Shown here: piece by piece, positions 1 to 9,703 of the stretch
Layout: each line of letters begins with the position of its first letter
Numbering within the stretch: position 1 is the stretch's first letter
From: Amoebidium appalachense
Taxonomy: Eukaryota; Protista; Ichthyosporea
Reading direction: 5' to 3'
Assembly: GCA_963693365.1 (NCBI GenBank)
Contig: CAVNZM010000094.1
Span: forward strand, 1 to 9,703
Length of the DNA: 9,703 bases
Notes under the pieces: model-generated
What the model was told of the DNA's origin: nothing
Seen by the model: only the letters and a program-made list of their open reading frames with translations
Databases searched by the model: none
Made by a program: the position numbers and the translations under genes

Positions 1-14
1 TGCATCTTGGGGAA

Positions 15-48
15 GGGGGGGGGGGGGGGTTTCATCCCCCCCTTTATT
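15..48 (-). terminator. Putative 3' end signal: AATAAA followed by a G7/C15 hairpin
   Basis: Plus-strand tttatt at 43-48 reads AATAAA on the minus strand, 4 nt after the TGA at 53-55. It is followed on the minus strand by G7-ATGAAA-C15 (plus strand C36-42 and G15-29). Confidence 0.5.
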
Positions 49-52
49 TCGT

Positions 53-883
53 TCAAAAAAGCAGTGTCGACGCCAGCTCGTTTGAGAACGACTCGCGCTG
101 CCTGAGGTCGCGCTGTGTGCTGATGGACGGGAGGTTGTCCAACCCGGCGCTGTGGATCGCTGGGTCGGGTCGTAGCTGAAGGTTGCCGTTCTTCTTGTAC
201 ACGGCGGGTGCCGCCACGTTGCGGGGACGTGTCGTGGCGGCAAGCACCTCCTGCGGCGTCAGCTTCGCCACGCTCAGCCTCTCACGCGGCCGCATCTCGC
301 TGCCCGTGAAGAGGCCCGTGCCCCGGATCTGTGAGATCGCGTCCATGGTGGAGTTGCTGACGTTTGGCCCTGCCCGATGCACGGTCTGCACAAGGTTGGG
401 GTGCACAGCCGGACGTGCGGGCGCGCCGATGAGCGCTGACGGTGTGCCTGAGGGAACCACCGAAGCCTGCTGCACAGCCCGCGTCGAAGGAGGCGCCTGC
501 GGTACCGTAACTGGCCCGTTGCCCGTGTTGACGACCGTGCCCCCGCCGTCGGCCGTGGCGTACTCGTCGTAGCCGAGCACGTACTCGTCCTCCTCGTCTC
601 CAAAGTACTCCTGGTTGCCCATGGCGACGGTATCGTCGTCGAACCCCCTAGCACTGTCCCGGTATGCAAGTGCCAGGTCTCGGTCAAATGGGCTGTCGGA
701 GGTTTGCAGCCCCCACTGCATGCCAGGGTCGTTGTTGCCTCCGGGCTGTTGCCCCGGGTCACTGTCCTCAGGCTGGAACGTAGGTGCTGTTGGCCATGCC
801 GACGCCCTCTTGTTGTAGTAGTAGAAGCCAGCTGCGATGATGCCCATGTACAGCAGCGTGCGGTCCATGGATCCAGAATTCAT
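53..883 (-). CDS. Membrane-anchored protein with NCLDV minor capsid protein P11-like C-terminal motif (276 aa; alternative start at 868)
   Basis: N-terminal hydrophobic anchor (TLLYMGIIAAGFYYY) followed by basic NKR, then a long low-complexity middle. The C-terminal KNGNLQLRPDPAI...STQRDLRQR (motif at nt 155-193) resembles the RNANLQLRSDPPI...STIxPDLxR motif I recall from chlorovirus P11-like proteins. AATAAA lies just past the stop. Confidence 0.65.
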   Translation of the reverse strand: MNSGSMDRTLLYMGIIAAGFYYYNKRASAWPTAPTFQPEDSDPGQQPGGNNDPGMQWGLQTSDSPFDRDLALAYRDSARGFDDDTVAMGNQEYFGDEEDEYVLGYDEYATADGGGTVVNTGNGPVTVPQAPPSTRAVQQASVVPSGTPSALIGAPARPAVHPNLVQTVHRAGPNVSNSTMDAISQIRGTGLFTGSEMRPRERLSVAKLTPQEVLAATTRPRNVAAPAVYKKNGNLQLRPDPAIHSAGLDNLPSISTQRDLRQRESFSNELASTLLF

Positions 884-927
884 ACCGGTTGTATAGAAAA
901 AAGCCCCAACCCCCGGGCCCCCAAGGG

Positions 928-934
928 TATAAAA
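928..934 (+). promoter_or_regulatory. TATA box of PCNA gene
   Basis: GGTATAAAAAC, 44 nt before the ATG at 972, which has a Kozak-like context (CCACCATG). Confidence 0.7.
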
Positions 935-971
935 ACAGCGTTGCCGGCACGTTCAGCGTCAGTCCCCCACC

Positions 972-1757
972 ATGCTCGTCAAGACCGTGCAAGTCAACAC
1001 GTTCAAATGCGCCATCGACAGCGTCAAGGACATCCTCGGCGAGGTGACCGTGCTGTTCAGTGGGAAGGAGGGCTTTGTTCTGCCCGCAGTTGACAATGCA
1101 AAGAAGGCCTACGTCTACATGAAGCTGCACCCCGACAAGTTTGAGATCTTCGACGTACCCAACGATGTGACCGCCACGTTCGAGATCCAGAACCTGTACA
1201 AGATCGTCAAGAACGCCACCGCCCACCGCTTCAACAGCATCGCATTCACCGCCACGGACGACACCCTGCAGGTCAAGATGGAGACCACCGATGACAGCAG
1301 CTGCATCGTGTACAACATGACCCTGGTCAAGGAGGTGCGGCAAATCCTCGACGCCCCATCGCTCGATTACGACTGTGTCTTTGTCATCGACGCCCAGGAG
1401 CTTGCGCGCTACCTGAGGGACATCCAGGCCGTGTCCAATGTCGTGAAGATCACTGTCGCGGATCGCACGCTCCGGCTGCGTGCGCTGGGCGCGCTGGGGA
1501 AGTGCAGGATAGACATCCCCGAAAAGGGAGAGGACGCGCTGAAGATCAGAAGGGGAAAAGCCACGGGTGTGGAGTTCAAGAAGGTCCCGATCGAGAAGGT
1601 CAAGGCGCAGTTCATGGTCAAGTATCTCAGCGCGTTCTGCAAGGGCGCGTGCGTGAACAGCAACGTCAGGATACACATGTCCAGTAACAAGCTCATCCGA
1701 TTCGAGTACGCCGTCAGTGACTTAGGCGTCCTAGCCTTCCATCTGTGCCCATTGTGA
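972..1757 (+). CDS. PCNA: Proliferating cell nuclear antigen (DNA sliding clamp), viral type
   Basis: 261 aa, the typical PCNA length. Motifs: FKCAIDSVKDIL, AVDNAKKAYVYMKLHPDKFE, NLYKIVK, FMVKYLSAFCKG, and C-terminal IRFEYAVSDLGVLAFHLCP. Strong G/C-ending codon bias and no introns. Confidence 0.93.
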   Translation: MLVKTVQVNTFKCAIDSVKDILGEVTVLFSGKEGFVLPAVDNAKKAYVYMKLHPDKFEIFDVPNDVTATFEIQNLYKIVKNATAHRFNSIAFTATDDTLQVKMETTDDSSCIVYNMTLVKEVRQILDAPSLDYDCVFVIDAQELARYLRDIQAVSNVVKITVADRTLRLRALGALGKCRIDIPEKGEDALKIRRGKATGVEFKKVPIEKVKAQFMVKYLSAFCKGACVNSNVRIHMSSNKLIRFEYAVSDLGVLAFHLCPL

Positions 1758-1776
1758 GATTTTCCACGCCTGGGGC

Positions 1777-4700
1777 ATGGACCGGTCCCGTAGACCGGGG
1801 TATGTTGTGGTGGACACTCAGTCCAATAAAGTCGTGGCCGATGCCTGGCCAAGTGCCGAGAATCCTGGCCGCTTCTTTCTAGAATCCCGAGCCGATGACC
1901 CTTTCCCCCTCGCACAGCTGGTGCAGGACCCGCGTCACCCGTCATACAACACCGGCACCGATAGGCAGGCCAGGGATGGCAATCTGAACCTGCGATTCCG
2001 TGTCCGTGATCCCATGTACGCACCCGCCCCGCCTACACAAACCCCACCGTCCCGATCCGAGACCTGGTGGGAGGAGCTTGCAGGCAAGGACCTGACCCAA
2101 GAACCCCTCGATGATGCCCGTGTAACTGCCGAGAACGTTCAGGGGATACTGAGCAAGGCGTATGTTCGCACAAGCACGCCGCGCCTGGTCAAGCTCGAGG
2201 GTGTCACGGACTCTAGGGGCCACGCGCTTTTCGCCAAGGAGGTGGAAAATCGGAAGGCACGCCACCCCACGACACCGGACCATCCCGAGCGCATCCGAAT
2301 GGCGTATGCCGCCCTTGCGGAGGCCCAGCGCATAGCTGGAAAAAACGTAAGGGATTCCCAGAAAGCAAAGGAGGGCAAAGCGCCGGAAGACTCCGATGAT
2401 CCCGGAGAGCCCAACATGCTCGAGGCGCTCGCCCTGATGGTGCCCGGGCTGCCACGGCCTGAGTTTGTGGAAGGAGTCCACCGCGAGGACGACGAACGGG
2501 CCTACCCCTACAAGCACGCGCTCCAGACACTCATCGCCGAGCGTGCAAAGCTGGCCAAGGAGCTGCGCGCAGCCGGTACCGATCGTGCGACCATGCGGCA
2601 GGCCCTCAAGGAACTGACCATGAGTGTTGCGCGCGACCTTTCAGGGCAGGAGTACTACGGCCGTGTCCAGCACATCCTGCGGGCCCTTGCCGATGACCAG
2701 GATCTTGACCTTCGAGATGGTAAGCGTATTCACCTCGGGTCACACGCCCCCCCCGGAGCCACCAGCATCGATGATGAAAGGGAGATGCACAAACGCTTCT
2801 ACGCCGATCTCGGCCGGCCTGAGCTCTCAGAAACCCGTTTCGATGACGCCCGCAGCCGTCTTGTTGCCAATGCCGTTTCGACCCGCCGAAGAGCAGAGGC
2901 GCCCACACCCACCACTGCCGACTCCACCGCCCAGGAACTTGCCACGGTTGCACATGCGCTGGGCGTGAGCCCGGACAACGCTCGCACGGCCATCGCCGCC
3001 TGGGCCGACCGGAAGCGGGAGCAGCTTGCGGGCCTGTACACCGCCGGGAGGCCCCGGTCGCCGGGCACCGCCGTCAACACAACATCCGACATTACGGACT
3101 CGGTGTGCGGGATCGTGTTTGTGGATCCGCACATCTCCAAGCACTTCCGGCCGATGACGTACCTGGTCGTCAGGCTCGACCGCTTTGTCCCGCGCGCAAT
3201 GCTCGTGGCGATGCACGTCATCGAGCACACGGGCAGGCCCGTTGTGTACAAGTCTAAGGCCACGGTCGCGGGGTTCTACCCACCCCAGCCCGGGGGAAAC
3301 CCCCCTCTGGCGCTGTACCAGCTGGAGCGCCAGCGGCTGATGCCCTTGGAGTCCACAGGTGATCTTCTCAACGTCGACGCGCCTGACAGCCCTTCGCCTG
3401 TCCGCTCCGTGGTCTATGAACCCCTGCCATCCCGAAGCACCGTGGCATCGAAAGGCTCCTTCACGCTGAGGCTCCTCCCCGACAACAAGGTCGCCCTGGG
3501 GGCAGAGGAGGCCCTGTGGGTGGTGGGCCCCGGGGGCGCCCGCCTGCTGCTGGTGCCGGGGGGGCGTTGGTACGGGGAGGAACCCCTCGCACAGCCCCTG
3601 CCCGCAGACGTCGAAGTGCACACGCTGAGAACTGCCGAACAGCCCGTAGGACGCCTGGGCCGTGGGAAGGCATACACGCAGGACATCCGCGATGCCATCC
3701 TGCTTGCGCACCTGCGGGACGAGAGGCTCACGGACACCGCACAGAGGCTCAAGGTCAGCACGCAGACCGTGCGGCGGGTAATAGCACGTGCCCTCAAGCA
3801 CGGCGAGTTCAGCAGCCGGCACGGCACCAACCTCGCAAGGGCCCATGAGAAATCCACCAAGCTGACGGACACACAGAAGATCGTGCTCTACGAGCTCACG
3901 ACCAAGGTACCCAACCTGACCAGCGAGAAGCTCATGGCCGCCTACAACGCACTGCCTGGCCTGCCCGAATCCGAGCGCATGAACGTGTCGGTGTCCACGC
4001 TCAACAAGTGGCGCAAGCGGCTTGGGCTGACGTACCGCCGTGGGGAGGGCGACCCGACAAACACCTTTGTAAGGTCCGTGGCTGCCGCCACCCAGTACTT
4101 TGAGGTCGAGCGCTTGCCACACCTGCAGGACAACCGCCAGAATCTGCTTTTCATCGACGAGGCCTCCGTGTACCTGGATGAGACCCCTGGCCGCGTGTGG
4201 GGGCACCGCGGCTCGCATCACAAAACCCCCAAGCCCAAGCTGCGCGGCATCGGCACAAAGCTGCTGATTTCCGTGGGGTTCCCCAAGGCGGACAACGATG
4301 GAAACATGCGGGCCGTGGTCAACTACCTGATTCTCAGTCCTCGGCCATCCGACGACCCGCTGTTCAACTACCGGCCTCTCGCCCCCCACGGCCGCGAGCC
4401 CCAAGCCGAGCTTTCCAACGAAAGCCTGGTGCCTGACGAGCTTGACGGTCGTGCGTTCTACGTGTTCTTGGAGTACGTCCTGGGGGCCGACCCACGCACG
4501 AACGGCGCAATCCTGTGCATGGACAACGCCCCCGTGCACAACACCAAGGAAAACTTGCCGGACATCAGGCAGCTCGCCGTGAGCAAGCATTGGCGCTTCC
4601 AGTGGCTCCCCCCCTACAACTCCAAGTACAACGTCGCCGAGTTGGCCATCGGCTTTGTCAAGCAGCACGTGCGCTCCCACTACCCCAAGACCTACTACCA

Positions 4701-6189
4701 CCTTCGCAAGCTGATCCAGGACGGCTGCTCACTGATCGAGCGGAACCCGGACTACATCGTCAACTGGATGAAGAAGTGCGGCTATGGTCTGCCCATCAAC
4801 ATCACCCGCAACGCCAACATCCGCAAGGACCGCATGGGCTTCTTTGCACCAGAAGGCACCATCTACACTCGCGTTGTCAAGATCACAAACCCCCAGGACA
4901 AACCCCTCAAGTGGCCCGATAACCCGAACTGGCCACGGTCCCAGCTGCGCCGCCTGCGCAACAGCATACTGGAGAACCCCGCGTGCTTTATCAGCCACGC
5001 CGGCGCCCTGTGGCGGCTGACCGAAACGGGACGCACGGCCGTCATCGATGCCCTCAACAGGGGGCACGCCACCACCGACCTGGCGCGTGCGTACACGCGC
5101 ACCGCCCCCACCACCGGAGATCCCCGATGGCAGCTGTTCAGCACGGACCCAAAGGCCTGGCAGCGGAAGGAGCTGGTAGCCACACAGCGTCCTGCCAAGC
5201 AGAAGCCTGTGAAGCCCCAGGCCCCAGCCACCCCTGTGCTTCCAGAGGTCCTCACGTCCAATCCCGCGGTCCTCCAGGCCGCCCGAGACAGGGCGGATAA
5301 AGTGCTGGCGGCCCTCAACGAGAAACTGAAGGCCGAACTGCACGAGAGCATGAAAGTCCGCGATGATCTGGACCATCTGCGGAGCAAAGCGGGCCGCGTG
5401 AGTGCTACGGACAACATAAACCCTATGTTTGCGGCCATATACGACAAGCGTGTCAGCACAAGAGCAAAAGAAGCCGCGAAGGAGAAGGAAAAGGAAAAGG
5501 TCCCCGACCCGCCCCAATCTGCGCCCGACCCGAACCAGGCCATCCACCAGCGCGAGTACTTGAACCCTCAGGTCCCTATGGACCTGGATTCTTACAACCC
5601 CCTGACCCCCGCGAGTTTGGACTCTTACAACCCCATGACCCCCATGAGTTTGGACCCGCCGACGCCTGCACCGCCTCCTCGATCTCCCCGGAAGCGTACG
5701 CGGTCTGAAGACCAGGATGAGGTCTCCGGCCCGGGCGGTGGGGCCAAGCGGTCGCGCACTGAGCAGCCCCCGGAAGGTCAAAGCGTTTTGGGTACAGCCT
5801 ACAGCCAGATGTGGTCTCCAGGGAGAGCTCATCCCGGACCGAGGCGTATCCTGCCACGGCCCGCAATCCCGCTGCAGCCACTGTCCTTTGTCCCATCCAC
5901 GAACACGTTGGGTTCGCCCGGGACTCCCTTCCCGCACATGCCATCCCCCGAGCAGCTCCGGTTTAACACACAGGCGCAGGCAATTTCCGCCAGGCCCCCG
6001 CTGAGCCATGCCTACCTGATACCGCCCCCGCCCTCGCCGTTCCCCAACCCGCAGTCGCAGATGTCCACGCCCGTAAATAATTTCACCTGGCACTATGCCA
6101 TTCGCCAAGCGCAAGCTCAAACGGTTCGGCCTCCTCCGCCTGACTGGCAACCGCAACCTCCAGCGCATTTTCAGCGCCGTGATGCGTAA
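1777..6189 (+). CDS. 1470-aa multidomain protein containing an IS630/Tc1/mariner-family DDE transposase/integrase domain
   Basis: Uninterrupted 4.4-kb ORF. Residues ~628-1003 carry HTH-like DNA-binding segments and the FIDE / MDNAPVH / LPPY...NVAE catalytic motifs. The N-terminal region is unrecognised. The C-terminal tail is Pro/Ser/Thr-rich with a basic NLS-like stretch. The true start could be a later ATG (e.g. 2014). Confidence 0.88.
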   Translation: MDRSRRPGYVVVDTQSNKVVADAWPSAENPGRFFLESRADDPFPLAQLVQDPRHPSYNTGTDRQARDGNLNLRFRVRDPMYAPAPPTQTPPSRSETWWEELAGKDLTQEPLDDARVTAENVQGILSKAYVRTSTPRLVKLEGVTDSRGHALFAKEVENRKARHPTTPDHPERIRMAYAALAEAQRIAGKNVRDSQKAKEGKAPEDSDDPGEPNMLEALALMVPGLPRPEFVEGVHREDDERAYPYKHALQTLIAERAKLAKELRAAGTDRATMRQALKELTMSVARDLSGQEYYGRVQHILRALADDQDLDLRDGKRIHLGSHAPPGATSIDDEREMHKRFYADLGRPELSETRFDDARSRLVANAVSTRRRAEAPTPTTADSTAQELATVAHALGVSPDNARTAIAAWADRKREQLAGLYTAGRPRSPGTAVNTTSDITDSVCGIVFVDPHISKHFRPMTYLVVRLDRFVPRAMLVAMHVIEHTGRPVVYKSKATVAGFYPPQPGGNPPLALYQLERQRLMPLESTGDLLNVDAPDSPSPVRSVVYEPLPSRSTVASKGSFTLRLLPDNKVALGAEEALWVVGPGGARLLLVPGGRWYGEEPLAQPLPADVEVHTLRTAEQPVGRLGRGKAYTQDIRDAILLAHLRDERLTDTAQRLKVSTQTVRRVIARALKHGEFSSRHGTNLARAHEKSTKLTDTQKIVLYELTTKVPNLTSEKLMAAYNALPGLPESERMNVSVSTLNKWRKRLGLTYRRGEGDPTNTFVRSVAAATQYFEVERLPHLQDNRQNLLFIDEASVYLDETPGRVWGHRGSHHKTPKPKLRGIGTKLLISVGFPKADNDGNMRAVVNYLILSPRPSDDPLFNYRPLAPHGREPQAELSNESLVPDELDGRAFYVFLEYVLGADPRTNGAILCMDNAPVHNTKENLPDIRQLAVSKHWRFQWLPPYNSKYNVAELAIGFVKQHVRSHYPKTYYHLRKLIQDGCSLIERNPDYIVNWMKKCGYGLPINITRNANIRKDRMGFFAPEGTIYTRVVKITNPQDKPLKWPDNPNWPRSQLRRLRNSILENPACFISHAGALWRLTETGRTAVIDALNRGHATTDLARAYTRTAPTTGDPRWQLFSTDPKAWQRKELVATQRPAKQKPVKPQAPATPVLPEVLTSNPAVLQAARDRADKVLAALNEKLKAELHESMKVRDDLDHLRSKAGRVSATDNINPMFAAIYDKRVSTRAKEAAKEKEKEKVPDPPQSAPDPNQAIHQREYLNPQVPMDLDSYNPLTPASLDSYNPMTPMSLDPPTPAPPPRSPRKRTRSEDQDEVSGPGGGAKRSRTEQPPEGQSVLGTAYSQMWSPGRAHPGPRRILPRPAIPLQPLSFVPSTNTLGSPGTPFPHMPSPEQLRFNTQAQAISARPPLSHAYLIPPPPSPFPNPQSQMSTPVNNFTWHYAIRQAQAQTVRPPPPDWQPQPPAHFQRRDA
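1825..1830 (+). promoter_or_regulatory. Possible polyadenylation signal for PCNA mRNA
   Basis: AATAAA about 68 nt downstream of the PCNA stop, inside the 5' end of the large ORF. Confidence 0.35.
3658..4785 (+). mobile_element. Tc1/IS630-like transposase domain (HTH + DDE catalytic core), no visible TIRs
   Basis: GKAYTQDIRDAIL...TAQRLKVSTQTVRRVI (first HTH); VSVSTLNKWRKRLGLTYRR (second HTH and linker); LLFIDEAS (D794, nt 4156); ILCMDNAPVH (D916, nt 4522); WLPPYNSKYNVAE (E955, nt 4639); terminal IVNWMKKCGY like IS630 C-termini. Confidence 0.88.
5584..5655 (+). repeat. 33-bp coding tandem repeat (about 2.2 copies; LDSYNPxTPxS)
   Basis: ctggattcttacaaccccctgacccccgcgagt (5584-5616), ttggactcttacaaccccatgacccccatgagt (5617-5649), and a partial ttggac. 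A degenerate unit (EYLNPQVPMD) precedes them. Confidence 0.85.
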
Positions 6190-6316
6190 GTATAAAAGCC
6201 GCAGCAACGTGGACAACGCCACCACTCGCAGACTGGAGGCCCAAGTGACACGCCGCTACAGAAACAAGCCGTTCTCTCGTCACGATATCGACGTGTTTGT
6301 AGGTTCGAGGTTGTGA
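6095..6316 (+). CDS. Possible small basic protein (73 aa) overlapping the 3' end of the large ORF
   Basis: Lys/Arg-rich, protein-like composition, with AT-rich taaataattt about 20 nt upstream. However, it overlaps the large ORF by 95 nt and spans a TATA box. Confidence 0.3.
   Translation: MPFAKRKLKRFGLLRLTGNRNLQRIFSAVMRKYKSRSNVDNATTRRLEAQVTRRYRNKPFSRHDIDVFVGSRL
6191..6197 (+). promoter_or_regulatory. TATA box, probably for the 6340 gene
   Basis: GTATAAAAG immediately after the TAA of the large ORF. There is no ATG between it and 6340. The spacing (149 nt) is longer than at the other three boxes. Confidence 0.5.
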
Positions 6317-6339
6317 CCCGATTATTGACGCGTGCTGGT

Positions 6340-7227
6340 ATGGTGGAGGGGAGGCTGGTGAACGTGCGAAAGGAAATGATCTGCTACATCGCCAGGCGCT
6401 ACGGAGGCTTTGCCCTGCCCACGCACAAGAGGCACGCAGAACTGGTTTCGATTGTACAGGCCGTGCCGGGCCTGCGCCTGCTCTTCCGGCGCGTGTTCCG
6501 TGTCTTCGACTTCCTGCGCAGGCGCCCACCCAACCTCACCAACGACACCGACCCTTTCTCTCTGGAGCCGCTGGCCCGGGACTGCTTCAAGTACACGCGC
6601 GCTGGCCACGTGTACGGATGCGATGCGGCCACCCTGGCCGACTACATCAGCAAGACCGGCAACCTCCGTGACCCGTTTGCCAACACCCCCTTCAGCGCAG
6701 CCGAGCTCGCACGCCTGGACCAGTGCACCGGGTTTGTGTTTGCGCTGTGTGTGCGTCTGCGCACCGAGAACCTGACGCGCACCAAGATGGCCGCCGTCAT
6801 CGAGCACGACGCCATGGTGCTCGTTGACCGGATGCTGGCGGACCTGGTCAGCCGCATTTCCGAGCAGCTGCAGCGCCTGCACGCCGCAGACCCCTACTCA
6901 AACGTGTCCGTCGAGGCGCACATTGCGCTTTCGCGGCTGTTTGACGAGTTCTGCAGCATCTGCAACCAGGGCAGCCGCTTCCAGCTCGAGGTGCAGACCA
7001 ACCTGCGCCGGCTGCAGGAGATGCTCGACGAGGCCGCCACCACCCACCCATCCCCCACGGTGACCTGGCTGCGCAGCGAGACCGTGCGCGTGCAGGGCCA
7101 GCTGCTTGACCGCGGTATGCCGCCCCCGCAGCAGGTCGCGGAGGGCGTGTGGATCCAGGGCCGGCAAAACGAGGTCATTGTCCATGTGGCTTCGGGCACT
7201 CTCGCAGATTTTGCACGGCGCTTGTAG
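6340..7227 (+). CDS. NCLDV-type protein with degenerate U-box/RING-like domain (295 aa)
   Basis: NDTDPFSLEPL...VYGCDAATLADYISKTGNLRDPFANTPFSAAELARL follows the DPITxE...YDxxxLxxY...DPxTxxxF U-box-like pattern common in giant viruses. Helical C-terminal half and G/C-ending codons. ATG 6340 is preferred over GTG 6313. Confidence 0.7.
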   Translation: MVEGRLVNVRKEMICYIARRYGGFALPTHKRHAELVSIVQAVPGLRLLFRRVFRVFDFLRRRPPNLTNDTDPFSLEPLARDCFKYTRAGHVYGCDAATLADYISKTGNLRDPFANTPFSAAELARLDQCTGFVFALCVRLRTENLTRTKMAAVIEHDAMVLVDRMLADLVSRISEQLQRLHAADPYSNVSVEAHIALSRLFDEFCSICNQGSRFQLEVQTNLRRLQEMLDEAATTHPSPTVTWLRSETVRVQGQLLDRGMPPPQQVAEGVWIQGRQNEVIVHVASGTLADFARRL

Positions 7228-7229
7228 CA

Positions 7230-7487
7230 ATGAGTCTGTACAACTCGGTCAACTTCAACGTCGACAACCCCCTGGACGCCCTGTTCCCGCCCATCACCAC
7301 CGACGTGCAGCGGCATCCAGGCCGCGTGGCGCGCACACACGGTGGTCCAGGCATAGGCTACCTACGTGGGGCGACCCAGCCCGGGGGGCGCTGGTTCTCT
7401 CGTGACCCCGTGCTCAGGCGCCTTGACTTCATCGTGCTGCTGCTGCTGCTGATCCTGGCGCTGGAAATCACAAAGGGGGGTTTGTAG
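7230..7487 (+). CDS. Small tail-anchored membrane protein (85 aa), unknown function
   Basis: ATG 2 nt after the upstream TAG. Reads MSLYNSVNFNVDNPLDALFPP... with a C-terminal hydrophobic helix FIVLLLLLILALEI. Coding-like codon bias. Confidence 0.72.
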   Translation: MSLYNSVNFNVDNPLDALFPPITTDVQRHPGRVARTHGGPGIGYLRGATQPGGRWFSRDPVLRRLDFIVLLLLLILALEITKGGL

Positions 7488-7523
7488 ATGGAGGGAACTT
7501 GGGTCTGATCCCAAGTTCATCTA
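7485..7523 (+). terminator. Hairpin beginning at the stop codon of the 7230 gene
   Basis: GAACTTGGG (7495-7503) pairs perfectly with CCCAAGTTC (7510-7518) around a 6-nt loop. The stem extends via TAGAT (7485-7489) / ATCTA (7519-7523) across a 5-nt bulge. Confidence 0.55.
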
Positions 7524-7613
7524 GCAGCCGACAGAGTTGCATACGAGTTGGGTAGGCCTGCTCCTACGGCTTTTGCGGACAATTCTTCCACCAGAACTGT
7601 CCCTCAGAACTAC

Positions 7614-7619
7614 AATAAA
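7614..7619 (+). promoter_or_regulatory. Putative polyadenylation signal AATAAA
   Basis: Intergenic, downstream of the 6340 and 7230 genes and upstream of the next TATA box. Confidence 0.45.
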
Positions 7620-7660
7620 CGATTGCTTCTGATCCACACGAGCACCACCCTCCTCGAAGG

Positions 7661-7667
7661 TATAAAA
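7661..7667 (+). promoter_or_regulatory. TATA box of KilA-N gene
   Basis: GGTATAAAAGGG, 40 nt before ATG 7701, which has a Kozak context (GCGCCATGG). Confidence 0.72.
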
Positions 7668-7700
7668 GGGCGACAAACGCCAGTCTAAACCACCTGCGCC

Positions 7701-9041
7701 ATGGCACGGTACAACCCCCCGCCCTATTCCACTCCCGTCATCGGGCCCACCTGGAAGCCCGCTCCTGGCAATGAGGCGCGTGTCGACACCTCGTCCGTGC
7801 CCGACTGGCCCGGGGTGCGCCCGTTCTACGCGCCCGACGGGGGGAGGGTGCTCACGTGGCTCAGCAAGTTCGACGGGCACGTGTTTTTCAACGCCGGGTA
7901 CTCGGCGGGCAAGGGGGGAGTAGAGGCGGGGGTGAGGAAGAATGCAATTGACTGGAAGAAGGACAACACACGTAAAATCGCGGATGTGGTATCATTGATA
8001 AACAAAGAGAGGACAGTAGGACAGCTCCTACTCTCCTCTGATTGGCTGGTTCGTACAACCTTTGCTAACATCAAAAAGCTCCCGGTCGTTACCTGCCCAG
8101 ACAGCTCGATAGTAAACGCGTTTGCAACCCATGGTCTGACACCCACCCTGGAGATGTTCCGCGGCACCTGGATGGCTTTCGAGCTGACAGCACCGTTCCT
8201 GCGCTTCTGCTTTCCCGACCTGGGCCAGTTCTGGGACGGCGTGATGGTCAAATCCCATTTGGGCCAGATGGATTTCTTCCCTGAATTGATCCGTATTGCG
8301 GATCAGGGACGGGGGGACGGGCACCGCACGGAAGCTGTCAACGTAGACATGAACGAGGGGTCCCGGAAGCGTGAGCGAGAAGAGGACGCCGAGTCGGCAG
8401 TGGTCAAACGAAGCACACTGGATGCCATGCTCGATCCGGATCGCTGGTTCAAACCCGGGGTTGATTTTGACACGGCCATGAAGCAGCTGCACCACTTTGT
8501 GGTTACTGTACATCGCGATTTCTGTACCAATGACAACCCCGAAGCGCTCGCCGCTGTCAAGCGCGCCGAGGAGGCTGAGCGTACCGAGAAAGCCAAACAG
8601 GACACAATACAGCGGGGCATCGACTCCACGCTTGCCATGGTCAAGGCTGTGCGCGAGATGAAGGCCGAGCTCAAGGGACTGGACGTGCACTTTGTGGCCT
8701 GGCGGCAGCTGAACTTCGAGTGGTCTCTCAAGGCGGCGGCAGGGGCGTGTGTGTACGCACTGCACATCGACGGCTACATCAAGATTGGACACACAGGGAA
8801 CTCTCTATTCGAACGCTACAAGTATGACCTCTGGTCTCACGACATGAAGGAGCTTATCATCCTGTGCATGCCCCACCGCAACAAGAAGGAGGCCGAGCAG
8901 TTCGAGAAACTGGTGCAGAACCAACTGAAGCCGGTGAGGTGTGCAGTTGGGAACAAGCGGGAGATGTTTGCCGCGGACTATGTACGCGTCTCAAATGCGT
9001 TCAAGGAAGTTTACGGAGAGGATGATATTCGGCTGGTGTGA
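7701..9041 (+). CDS. KilA-N (APSES-like) DNA-binding domain + coiled coil + T5orf172/GIY-YIG-like nuclease domain protein
   Basis: KilA-N-like motifs DGHVFFNAG, IDWKKDNTRKI and RGTWMAFELTAPFLRFCFPDL (cf. GTWVHPxLAxxFAxWxSPxF). Basic SRKRER stretch and a central helical region. C-terminal CVYALHIDGYIKIGHTGNSLFERY...EAEQFEKLVQNQLK...REMF matches the T5orf172 pattern. This architecture is common in NCLDVs. Confidence 0.8.
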   Translation: MARYNPPPYSTPVIGPTWKPAPGNEARVDTSSVPDWPGVRPFYAPDGGRVLTWLSKFDGHVFFNAGYSAGKGGVEAGVRKNAIDWKKDNTRKIADVVSLINKERTVGQLLLSSDWLVRTTFANIKKLPVVTCPDSSIVNAFATHGLTPTLEMFRGTWMAFELTAPFLRFCFPDLGQFWDGVMVKSHLGQMDFFPELIRIADQGRGDGHRTEAVNVDMNEGSRKREREEDAESAVVKRSTLDAMLDPDRWFKPGVDFDTAMKQLHHFVVTVHRDFCTNDNPEALAAVKRAEEAERTEKAKQDTIQRGIDSTLAMVKAVREMKAELKGLDVHFVAWRQLNFEWSLKAAAGACVYALHIDGYIKIGHTGNSLFERYKYDLWSHDMKELIILCMPHRNKKEAEQFEKLVQNQLKPVRCAVGNKREMFAADYVRVSNAFKEVYGEDDIRLV

Positions 9042-9074
9042 TCTGGTTTTCTGTGGATGACAGGGCACTCAACC

Positions 9075-9081
9075 TATAAAA
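9075..9081 (+). promoter_or_regulatory. TATA box of 9121 gene
   Basis: CTATAAAAG, 46 nt before ATG 9121. Confidence 0.68.
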
Positions 9082-9120
9082 GCGATCAATATCTGTTTAT
9101 TTGTTCATTCTGCATTCGCT

Positions 9121-9624
9121 ATGGACTTAGACACGATCATGGATTTGGAGGTTCTGAGGAGAAAACGTGAGCTTGAGCGCCAGTATAGAAAATACGTAGA
9201 GGCCATCCGGGCTGACCTGGATGCCCTCAACCCCTCATTCGACGCACGATACCATATCATAAGCGGTCTAAATACAGTCCAAACTTCTGCGGCAAGACAT
9301 GGTGCTTGTTTTTACTTCATAAATCTACCTGACAACACAATTGCTTTTGGTTACACGGGCAAGGGCCTGGACAGAAAGTACCCCCCTTCTGGGCCCATAC
9401 GTGTTATCAATGGCTCAGTATTGCTTGCCATCCCGGCCCAGAACAAGCAAATCGCTGCACGCATGAAAGCGGAATTCAAGTCGTTGATGCACAAGTATGC
9501 AAGTTCCATGCAAATTGATGGGTCTGAAATCATCGGTAACGACTATGAGCTGTTCAGATCTGTGATGGAGAAATGGAACAGCTGCGCTATTGAGGAGGGC
9601 TGGTCGACCTTGGCGCTTGCCTAG
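9121..9624 (+). CDS. Degenerate T5orf172/GIY-YIG-like protein, paralogue of the upstream C-terminal domain (167 aa)
   Basis: GACFYFINLPDNTIAFGYTGKGLDRKY aligns with upstream GACVYALHIDGYIKIGHTGNSLFERY. VLLAIPAQNKQIAARMK aligns with IILCMPHRNKKEAEQFE. SEIIGNDYELF aligns with REMFAADYVRV. Has its own TATA box. Confidence 0.72.
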   Translation: MDLDTIMDLEVLRRKRELERQYRKYVEAIRADLDALNPSFDARYHIISGLNTVQTSAARHGACFYFINLPDNTIAFGYTGKGLDRKYPPSGPIRVINGSVLLAIPAQNKQIAARMKAEFKSLMHKYASSMQIDGSEIIGNDYELFRSVMEKWNSCAIEEGWSTLALA

Positions 9625-9703
9625 GACACTCCTTGGTCAGAGGCTAGCGCTAATGAGCGCGTGTACTGGTTACGCCAGCATAAAGAAGATACCAAGGTCA
9701 GTT

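Follow-up and report, generated by a model that had tools for sequence, protein, structure and literature searches.

A giant IS630/Tc1/mariner-type DDE fusion protein as an old resident gene, and possible integrase, of a likely viral element in Amoebidium appalachense

The contig CAVNZM010000094.1 of Amoebidium appalachense (assembly GCA_963693365.1), analysed here over 9,703 nucleotides (the window, positions 1 to 9,703 of the forward strand), contains an open reading frame (ORF) for P0001, a giant fusion protein of 1470 residues in which a transposase core of the IS630/Tc1/mariner type is enclosed by long extensions. The window probably belongs to an endogenous viral element or to a large DNA virus of eukaryotes. 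Our analysis supports P0001 as an old resident gene of that element rather than a passenger insertion sequence (IS), and we tentatively propose, with somewhat less than even confidence, that it is the element's own integrase or transposase, acting on inverted repeats at distant genome ends. The parts of P0001 are as follows:

1777..6189, + strand: giant IS630/Tc1/mariner-type DDE fusion protein P0001, 1470 residues.
1777..3657, + strand: N-terminal extension, residues 1-627; no known family and no confident fold.
3658..4146, + strand: predicted helix-turn-helix (HTH) DNA-binding region, residues 628-790 (Pfam HTH_23/29/28).
4147..4791, + strand: RNase H-fold catalytic domain, residues 791-1005 (Pfam, triad, Foldseek, VIA-align).
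4912..5151, + strand: predicted small alpha/beta domain 3' of the DDE core, residues ~1046-1125.
5527..6186, + strand: proline-rich tail (21% Pro), probably disordered.

The longest open frame in 200 shuffles of the window reached 444 codons, against the 1470-residue ORF. Pfam placed HTH_23 at residues 641-676 (E 1.3e-5, above the cut-off) and DDE_3 at residues 888-972 (E 4.6e-10), and the NCBIfam IS630 transposase profile matched at E 5e-26 with 91.8 bits, where the equivalog cut-off is 100. The catalytic triad is complete, with D794 (position 4156), D916 (4522) and E955 (4639) forming a DD38E arrangement. An in-frame HTH plus DDE transposase inside the giant ORF had been proposed by a model reading the letters alone (the original prediction), and these matches bear it out; with an HTH region and a predicted RNase H fold carrying D, D and E, the core belongs to the IS630/Tc1/mariner proteins. 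The HTH region is predicted to be bipartite as in Tc1/mariner and had a weak match to the N-domain of Sleeping Beauty (E 0.06). The GC content at third codon positions (GC3) was 0.85 in residues 628-1003 versus 0.84 in the upstream PCNA gene, in agreement with the predicted likeness of their codon bias, and lower in the distal flanks (0.66-0.73 in residues 1-400 and 1151-1470). Within the N-terminal extension the best-conserved motif was found at residues 125-148. The small post-DDE domain has a repeated WP-helix-strand pattern, judged by eye, and is apparently single in P0001 and double in its homologues P0002-P0006, described below. The tail showed no significant similarity to the tails of the homologues; its coding part holds a 33-bp tandem duplication (5585-5655), and a basic cluster at residue 1305 is a possible nuclear localisation signal.

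Structure prediction with AlphaFold2 used 8 aligned sequences, as the single-sequence model was poor (mean predicted local distance difference test score, pLDDT, of 34). In the resulting model, moderate confidence was limited to the core and the small post-DDE domain (pLDDT 50-68); residues 1-635 had pLDDT mostly below 50, so no fold is claimed or denied for them. Foldseek matched the core to Mos1 (E 8e-7) and Sleeping Beauty (E 6e-6), and VIA-align gave Z 15.1 to 5cr4 (root-mean-square deviation, rmsd, 4.5; 196 aligned) and Z 15.0 to Metnase (rmsd 2.9; 174 aligned). Sleeping Beauty, Metnase and Mos1 all gave Z of about 15, and retroviral integrases 12.4 at most. The model aligned with Mos1 from residue 631 and with the HTH of Tc3, and its top viral structure matches included giant-virus transposases. 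The core is therefore predicted to have a fold of the Mos1/Sleeping Beauty type.

P0001 belongs to a family that shares its whole architecture. Full-length searching retrieved P0002 (1432 residues), and HMMER, run over 1.84 billion representatives, yielded 41 matches at E <= 0.001, four of them below 1e-30: P0003 (1619 residues), P0004 (1390), P0005 (1533) and the partial P0006. The four full-length homologues have 1390-1619 residues and ~26% identity overall, with the HTH starting at residue 560-598. The triad was kept as DD39E in all five homologues, giving D, D and E in six of six members. Compared with P0001, the homologues were 38-43% identical across the HTH and DDE parts (38-42% for the HTH region itself) and 13-27% identical in the rest, so that catalysis and DNA binding appear, from sequence, to be the best conserved functions of the protein. 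The extensions were nevertheless recognisable: an N-terminal profile built from P0002-P0005 scored 28.7 bits on P0001 (best of 300 shuffles 0.9) and a C-terminal profile built from homologues only scored 34.1 bits (best of 300 shuffles 2.4), which indicates that both are homologous across the family. In a quick tree of 29 rows, which retained 23 of the 37 other matches (at least 280 residues), the six cores formed one clade with a Shimodaira-Hasegawa-like approximate likelihood ratio test (SH-aLRT) value of 99. When the N-terminal, core and C-terminal parts were each given a tree, all three shared the P0003+P0005 split (95/56/60) without supported conflict, although such agreement among five taxa is weak evidence. 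As full-length homologues share one architecture, homologous flanks and one clade, the sequence comparison indicates that the fusion is ancient and not a fresh insertion. The homologues are unnamed and come from Logan and European Nucleotide Archive (ENA) contigs of 4.8-22 kb, P0003 from an ENA contig of 22 kb. P0001 itself has no entry in the Atlas. A search of the Atlas with P0003 returned ordinary DDE_3 clusters alone (< 0.9), and the N-terminal part of P0003 gave no usable match there. No match was found by tblastn in the phage collection, or in PHROG for any of the window's proteins.

Contigs from other sequencing runs showed that the fusion is intact. At least half of the window's sampled words were present in 20 of the 24 listed runs, none of the listed runs with the window's words being of RNA, and 7 runs were aligned to the window. 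Single contigs bridged the N-terminal/HTH junction in X1 (180-4346, 0 differences), X6 (1307-4542) and X4 (1400-4317), and the DDE/C-terminal junction likewise in X1 (4348-6627), X6 (4516-7488) and X4 (4513-6604). No single listed piece covers the entire window, and one bridging sample may be the window's own source. Because contigs from other runs bridge both junctions, the fusion is not a misassembly.

The same runs contained a second sequence, 82-86% identical to the window and at lower depth, in pieces corresponding to 1400-2081, 2887-3164, 3342-4399, 4516-5018, 5128-5247 and 6087-6589; their similar depth suggests that all belong to one element. The first piece runs from PCNA into the giant ORF, and the last from the end of the ORF into the downstream gene, each on one contig, so the giant gene lies between PCNA and the same downstream gene in this ~85% relative. 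The synteny with PCNA for which the original prediction asked is thus seen in the relative; for the distant homologues, exact short-pattern searches confirmed no locus. In the 12 of 14 rows seen, the relative's indels within the ORF offset one another or add up to multiples of three. In hand-picked, non-random samples, 25 differences in the ORF fell 13 at third, 7 at first and 5 at second codon positions, and 12 of 13 in PCNA were at third positions. Among the joints in the 7 aligned runs (of 24 listed), whose contigs drop rare variants, none deletes the ORF to leave an empty site, and none places a dispersed copy in another context. Further joints at 1749-1824, 4541-4757 and 4805-6580, seen as short patches at the PCNA end and ORF start and at the DDE end and downstream gene, point to a third element, more diverged but sharing this gene order, though the last of them could reflect a deletion.

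These results bear directly on whether the transposase is a passenger. Giant viruses commonly carry IS630/Tc1 elements as passengers, and an ordinary one freshly inserted in frame within a viral gene might produce such an ORF, as might a chimeric assembly. Such an origin is highly improbable, since both junctions are bridged by contigs, the architecture recurs with homologous flanks in four distant full-length homologues, the domain borders carry no terminal inverted repeat (TIR) relics and the ~85% relative has the same arrangement. The view of P0001 as a resident, domesticated gene rather than a passenger IS, as the original prediction had it, is thus supported by an old family, homologous extensions, the same gene order in the relative and the lack of an empty-site joint in the 7 aligned runs.

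The borders of the ORF leave little room for the ends of a conventional element. Two features adjoin them:

1758..1776, + strand: 19-bp spacer between the PCNA stop and the giant ORF, with no TA and no TIR arm.
6182..6316, + strand: candidate small gene, a 44-codon basic ORF lying over the giant ORF's stop and holding the TATAAAA at 6191.

The spacer has the length originally given for it, and in the ~85% relative it is found together with PCNA and the ORF start on one contig (X6 piece 1400-2081). Inverted-repeat searches at this ORF found no TIR pair flanking 1777-6189: the best inverted 12-mer matched at 10 of 12 positions and was equalled in 16 of 30 shuffles, and the best 20-mer, with both arms in coding sequence, matched at 15 of 20 and was equalled in 1 of 30. 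The latter match (1802/6159) was rejected as a TIR, as its arms lie inside the ORF, do not extend by eye and are near chance. TIR relics were likewise not found at the borders of the transposase domain within the ORF, and no TA target duplication was found in a search around this ORF only. The predicted lack of a TIR pair and TA duplication at the ORF was thus upheld, whereas the TATA box 1 bp past its stop was upheld as sequence but may not be a promoter. The next long ORF begins 149 bp beyond the TATAAAA at 6191, a distance that is 40-46 bp for each of the three remaining TATA boxes, and the motif sits inside the 44-codon ORF; it may be coding sequence instead. GC3 in that small ORF was 0.67 versus 0.47/0.47, and the sole gap of the ~85% relative in 6087-6627 falls at 6317-6318, just past the small ORF's stop, which suggests a real small gene. 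The giant ORF has no TATA box of its own, leaving a promoter within PCNA or a shared transcript, and an AATAAA occurs at 1825-1830, 68 bp past the PCNA stop and inside the giant ORF.

Transposases of the IS630/Tc1/mariner superfamily cut the ends of their element and insert it at TA, which is duplicated. The duplication of TA by these enzymes is also stated in bioRxiv 2024.09.03.611062. In P0001 the HTH region is as conserved as the catalytic domain, so DNA sites for it to bind should still exist; an end-binding domain that has been kept, with no ends nearby, would need ends elsewhere, most simply at the termini of the element. We therefore tentatively infer a role in whole-virus integration or excision. 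The HTH region would bind terminal repeats at the far ends of the whole element; the DDE site would cleave there and link the cut ends to a TA in host DNA, with duplication of that TA. P0001 could later excise the genome, and, more speculatively, the extensions would set timing, oligomer state or target choice.

Conservation of the HTH region and triad would also fit a domesticated viral nuclease that does not integrate, and instead cuts or joins its own viral DNA at specific sites or nicks host DNA, with possible tasks in concatemer resolution, end processing, circularisation or recombination-linked replication. The position of the gene 19 bp behind that of the replication clamp PCNA, in the relative as well, and the 1,000 or more additional residues not needed for transposition would suit such an enzyme, but a simple scan for PCNA-interacting peptide (PIP) and AlkB homologue 2 PCNA-interacting motif (APIM) patterns found no canonical PCNA-binding motif in P0001, no viral IS630/Tc1 enzyme in such a role was found in the literature searched, and a steady depth ratio, considered below, hints at integrated copies. 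On balance we regard a nuclease of this kind as rather unlikely. A former transposase whose main work is now to bind specific DNA sequences as a regulator or scaffold, its catalysis being incidental, would account for the large extensions, the possible nuclear localisation signal and the lack of ends nearby; it is improbable given that six of six members, at ~40% core identity, retain an intact triad together with the motifs around it, and that the catalytic domain is conserved as well as the HTH region.

Contig depth of the window's element relative to the ~85% relative was ~4-7 in five of five evenly covered runs (X1, X4, X6, X10 and X13, from three samples of 2011-2024), and a run whose contigs total only 0.65 Mb still yielded assembled pieces of both. 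A ratio this steady gives no more than a hint of integrated copies in fixed number. In X18 and X19, contig depth was uneven, varying by gene; these runs are recorded as 'DNA?' and were not used for expression.

Several points weigh against P0001 as the integrase of its element. Contig depth is not copy number, as the tool itself states, and a stable mix of episomes would also yield a steady depth ratio. Domesticated transposases can retain the catalytic fold for other work, as in SETMAR/Metnase. Synteny was demonstrated at ~85% identity alone, and the window is internal, with no element end, TIR, target duplication or host junction seen in it and no capsid, terminase or polymerase gene. An X10 contig links 4805 to 6580, the intervening letters not being known, and this joint could come from a relative of greater divergence or from a derivative that has lost the part between. 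In a giant endogenous virus of Chlamydomonas, the IS630/Tc1/mariner genes are selfish passengers that do not match the virus's 6-bp target duplication, according to bioRxiv 2024.09.03.611062, where the enzyme that integrates this virus was not found.

Like Mos1, Sleeping Beauty and IS630 (DDE_3), P0001 has an HTH followed by an RNase H-fold DDE domain, but it is ~4 times longer, its core lies internally between conserved extensions, and the interval between the first two aspartates is 121 residues in P0001 and 149-164 in its homologues, compared with ~100 in two standard-size matches. In contrast to IS630/Tc1/mariner elements the locus has no flanking TIRs or TA, and so it does not qualify as an ordinary element of this kind though its core belongs to the superfamily. 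Giant-virus elements that pair an IS630/Tc1/mariner transposase with Fanzor (bioRxiv 2024.09.03.611062) share the superfamily and the large-virus setting, but are multi-copy passengers at >99% identity, whereas P0001 is one fixed old fusion; the window's other proteins gave no Pfam or NCBIfam match to an adjoining Fanzor/TnpB gene. Teratorn carries an internal piggyBac transposase with TIRs at its far ends and has subtypes ~88% identical (PMC10175614). It resembles the P0001 element in that the transposase gene lies in the interior of a large virus-like element, and in the occurrence of related subtypes (~88% identity in Teratorn) at different copy numbers in one host, and differs in being a piggyBac system with TTAA targets, an alloherpesvirus genome, known ends and demonstrated activity, while the role of the giant IS630/Tc1/mariner fusion is inferred. 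Endogenous nimaviruses of sesarmids, which have a Ginger2-like DDE enzyme and 46-bp TIRs (PMC10871703), are large DNA viruses inferred, as is proposed here, to integrate by a captured cut-and-paste DDE enzyme, though theirs is a retroviral-integrase-like, intron-containing Ginger2 enzyme. P0001 is of neither the piggyBac nor the Ginger2 class, its best profile and fold matches being to IS630/Tc1/mariner. With these virus-transposon hybrids it shares a transposase fixed in the element and, as seen in the ~85% relative, inherited with its neighbours; the mode of action most plausible for P0001 is that of the Teratorn or nimavirus integrases, though it is a member of neither group.

Elsewhere, a brown-algal viral element holds an IS630-like gene among other transposases (PMC11890097), and a tyrosine recombinase has been inferred for integration of phaeoviruses (PMC13236599). 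Neither 'integrase' nor 'DDE' occurs in the main texts, as available, of three mirusvirus papers (PMC12606086, bioRxiv 2023.06.15.545109 and PMC12768974). No giant DDE fusion was found in the supplements of two of these papers, of which the long files may be incomplete, and neither of the two Aurantiochytrium mirusvirus gene tables examined (PMC12606086 supplements) contained motifs of the DDE core or of this PCNA. A search of the supplement of PMC11244446 was blank. We did not find a giant IS630/Tc1/mariner fusion described as a resident viral gene in the literature searched, though supplementary viral gene tables could already list one.

The nature of the element was judged from the neighbouring genes:

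972..1757, + strand: PCNA (Pfam PCNA_N/C), with TATAAAA at 928.
6340..7227, + strand: 295-residue gene of no recognised function, also the downstream neighbour in the ~85% relative.
7701..9041, + strand: T5orf172-domain gene (Pfam E 5.8e-4, 20.8 bits, cut-off 20), with a TATA box at 7661.

PCNA matched solved cellular PCNAs with just 50-83 bits per domain and 12 unnamed metagenomic homologues at 44-49%, from which we infer that it is a virus-type protein strongly diverged from cellular PCNAs. In the T5orf172 region (7488-9703) contigs branch in every run, and a joint leads from 9703 back to a copy of 7577 onward in four of four runs; the region behaves as a multi-copy family, with tandem or dispersed paralogues sharing an upstream part. 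ORFs in the window are tightly packed and apparently intron-less, and their genes are probably transcribed by host polymerase II. PCNA and T5orf172 were the only proteins that Pfam recognised beside the giant ORF in the 9.7 kb. A diverged PCNA, a T5orf172 family, TATA boxes and tight packing together make a large DNA virus, or an endogenous copy of one, the likely source. Tracts of G-runs and C-runs occur at the window start (11-43), and a G/C-rich, partly palindromic stretch (896-930) lies between a divergent 276-residue gene and the PCNA TATA box.

In the quick tree the sister group of the P0001 clade, weakly supported (SH-aLRT 83), consisted of other long DDE proteins. P0007, P0009, P0015, P0026, P0027, P0041 and their kin likewise have an insertion between the first two aspartates, but unlike P0001 they are 470-890 residues long without a long N-terminal extension, and have a chromodomain where P0001 has its small alpha/beta domain; Pfam Chromo was found C-terminally in five of nine scanned. 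These six, together with P0013, P0021, P0033 and P0037, fall in a clade of long IS630-like DDE proteins (SH-aLRT 99) with a large insertion in the catalytic domain and, in many, a chromodomain at the end. One protein of this clade is encoded on a 295-kb contig and a cluster of them on several ~3.4-kb contigs. No title on the clade was found in the literature on IS630 and chromodomain transposases in viruses. Exact short-pattern locus searches confirmed no relative for the giant protein (in viral, metagenome and genome contigs), the long chromodomain-type proteins, or the PCNA, 295-residue and T5orf172 genes, which does not show that relatives are absent.

The ~3.4-kb contigs of the sister clade, assembled as a repeat would be, are in keeping with P0001 as the transposase of a large multi-gene transposon without virion genes, or of a block mobile within viral genomes, having its ends outside the window and virus-derived PCNA and T5orf172 genes among its cargo. 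The window does lack a virion gene, and giant gene-rich repeats with transposases are known in a protist (PMC11244446). We nonetheless consider such a transposon unlikely, since the dense intron-less genes, TATA boxes 40-46 bp upstream, diverged PCNA and T5orf172 family resemble a large DNA virus, and one sister-clade protein lies on a 295-kb contig.

How giant and other large DNA viruses enter host genomes is an unsettled question, for which P0001 provides a named candidate. If P0001 is the integrase of its element, short TIRs and TA duplications are sharply predicted at the element's ends. It is possible, though we hold this with more doubt than conviction, that the window represents a new lineage of large viruses that moves its whole genome into and out of chromosomes at TA by means of a Tc1/mariner-derived core protein of 1,400-1,600 residues. 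Such a lineage would be the first virus-Tc1/mariner hybrid in the literature searched, persisting as multi-copy giant transposons; a mariner-type enzyme would have been adapted to a cargo of at least 100 kb, and another DDE superfamily would join those known from virus-transposon hybrids. Even without integration, P0001 would represent an old viral domestication of a transposase, together with ~1,000 residues of uncharacterised domains.

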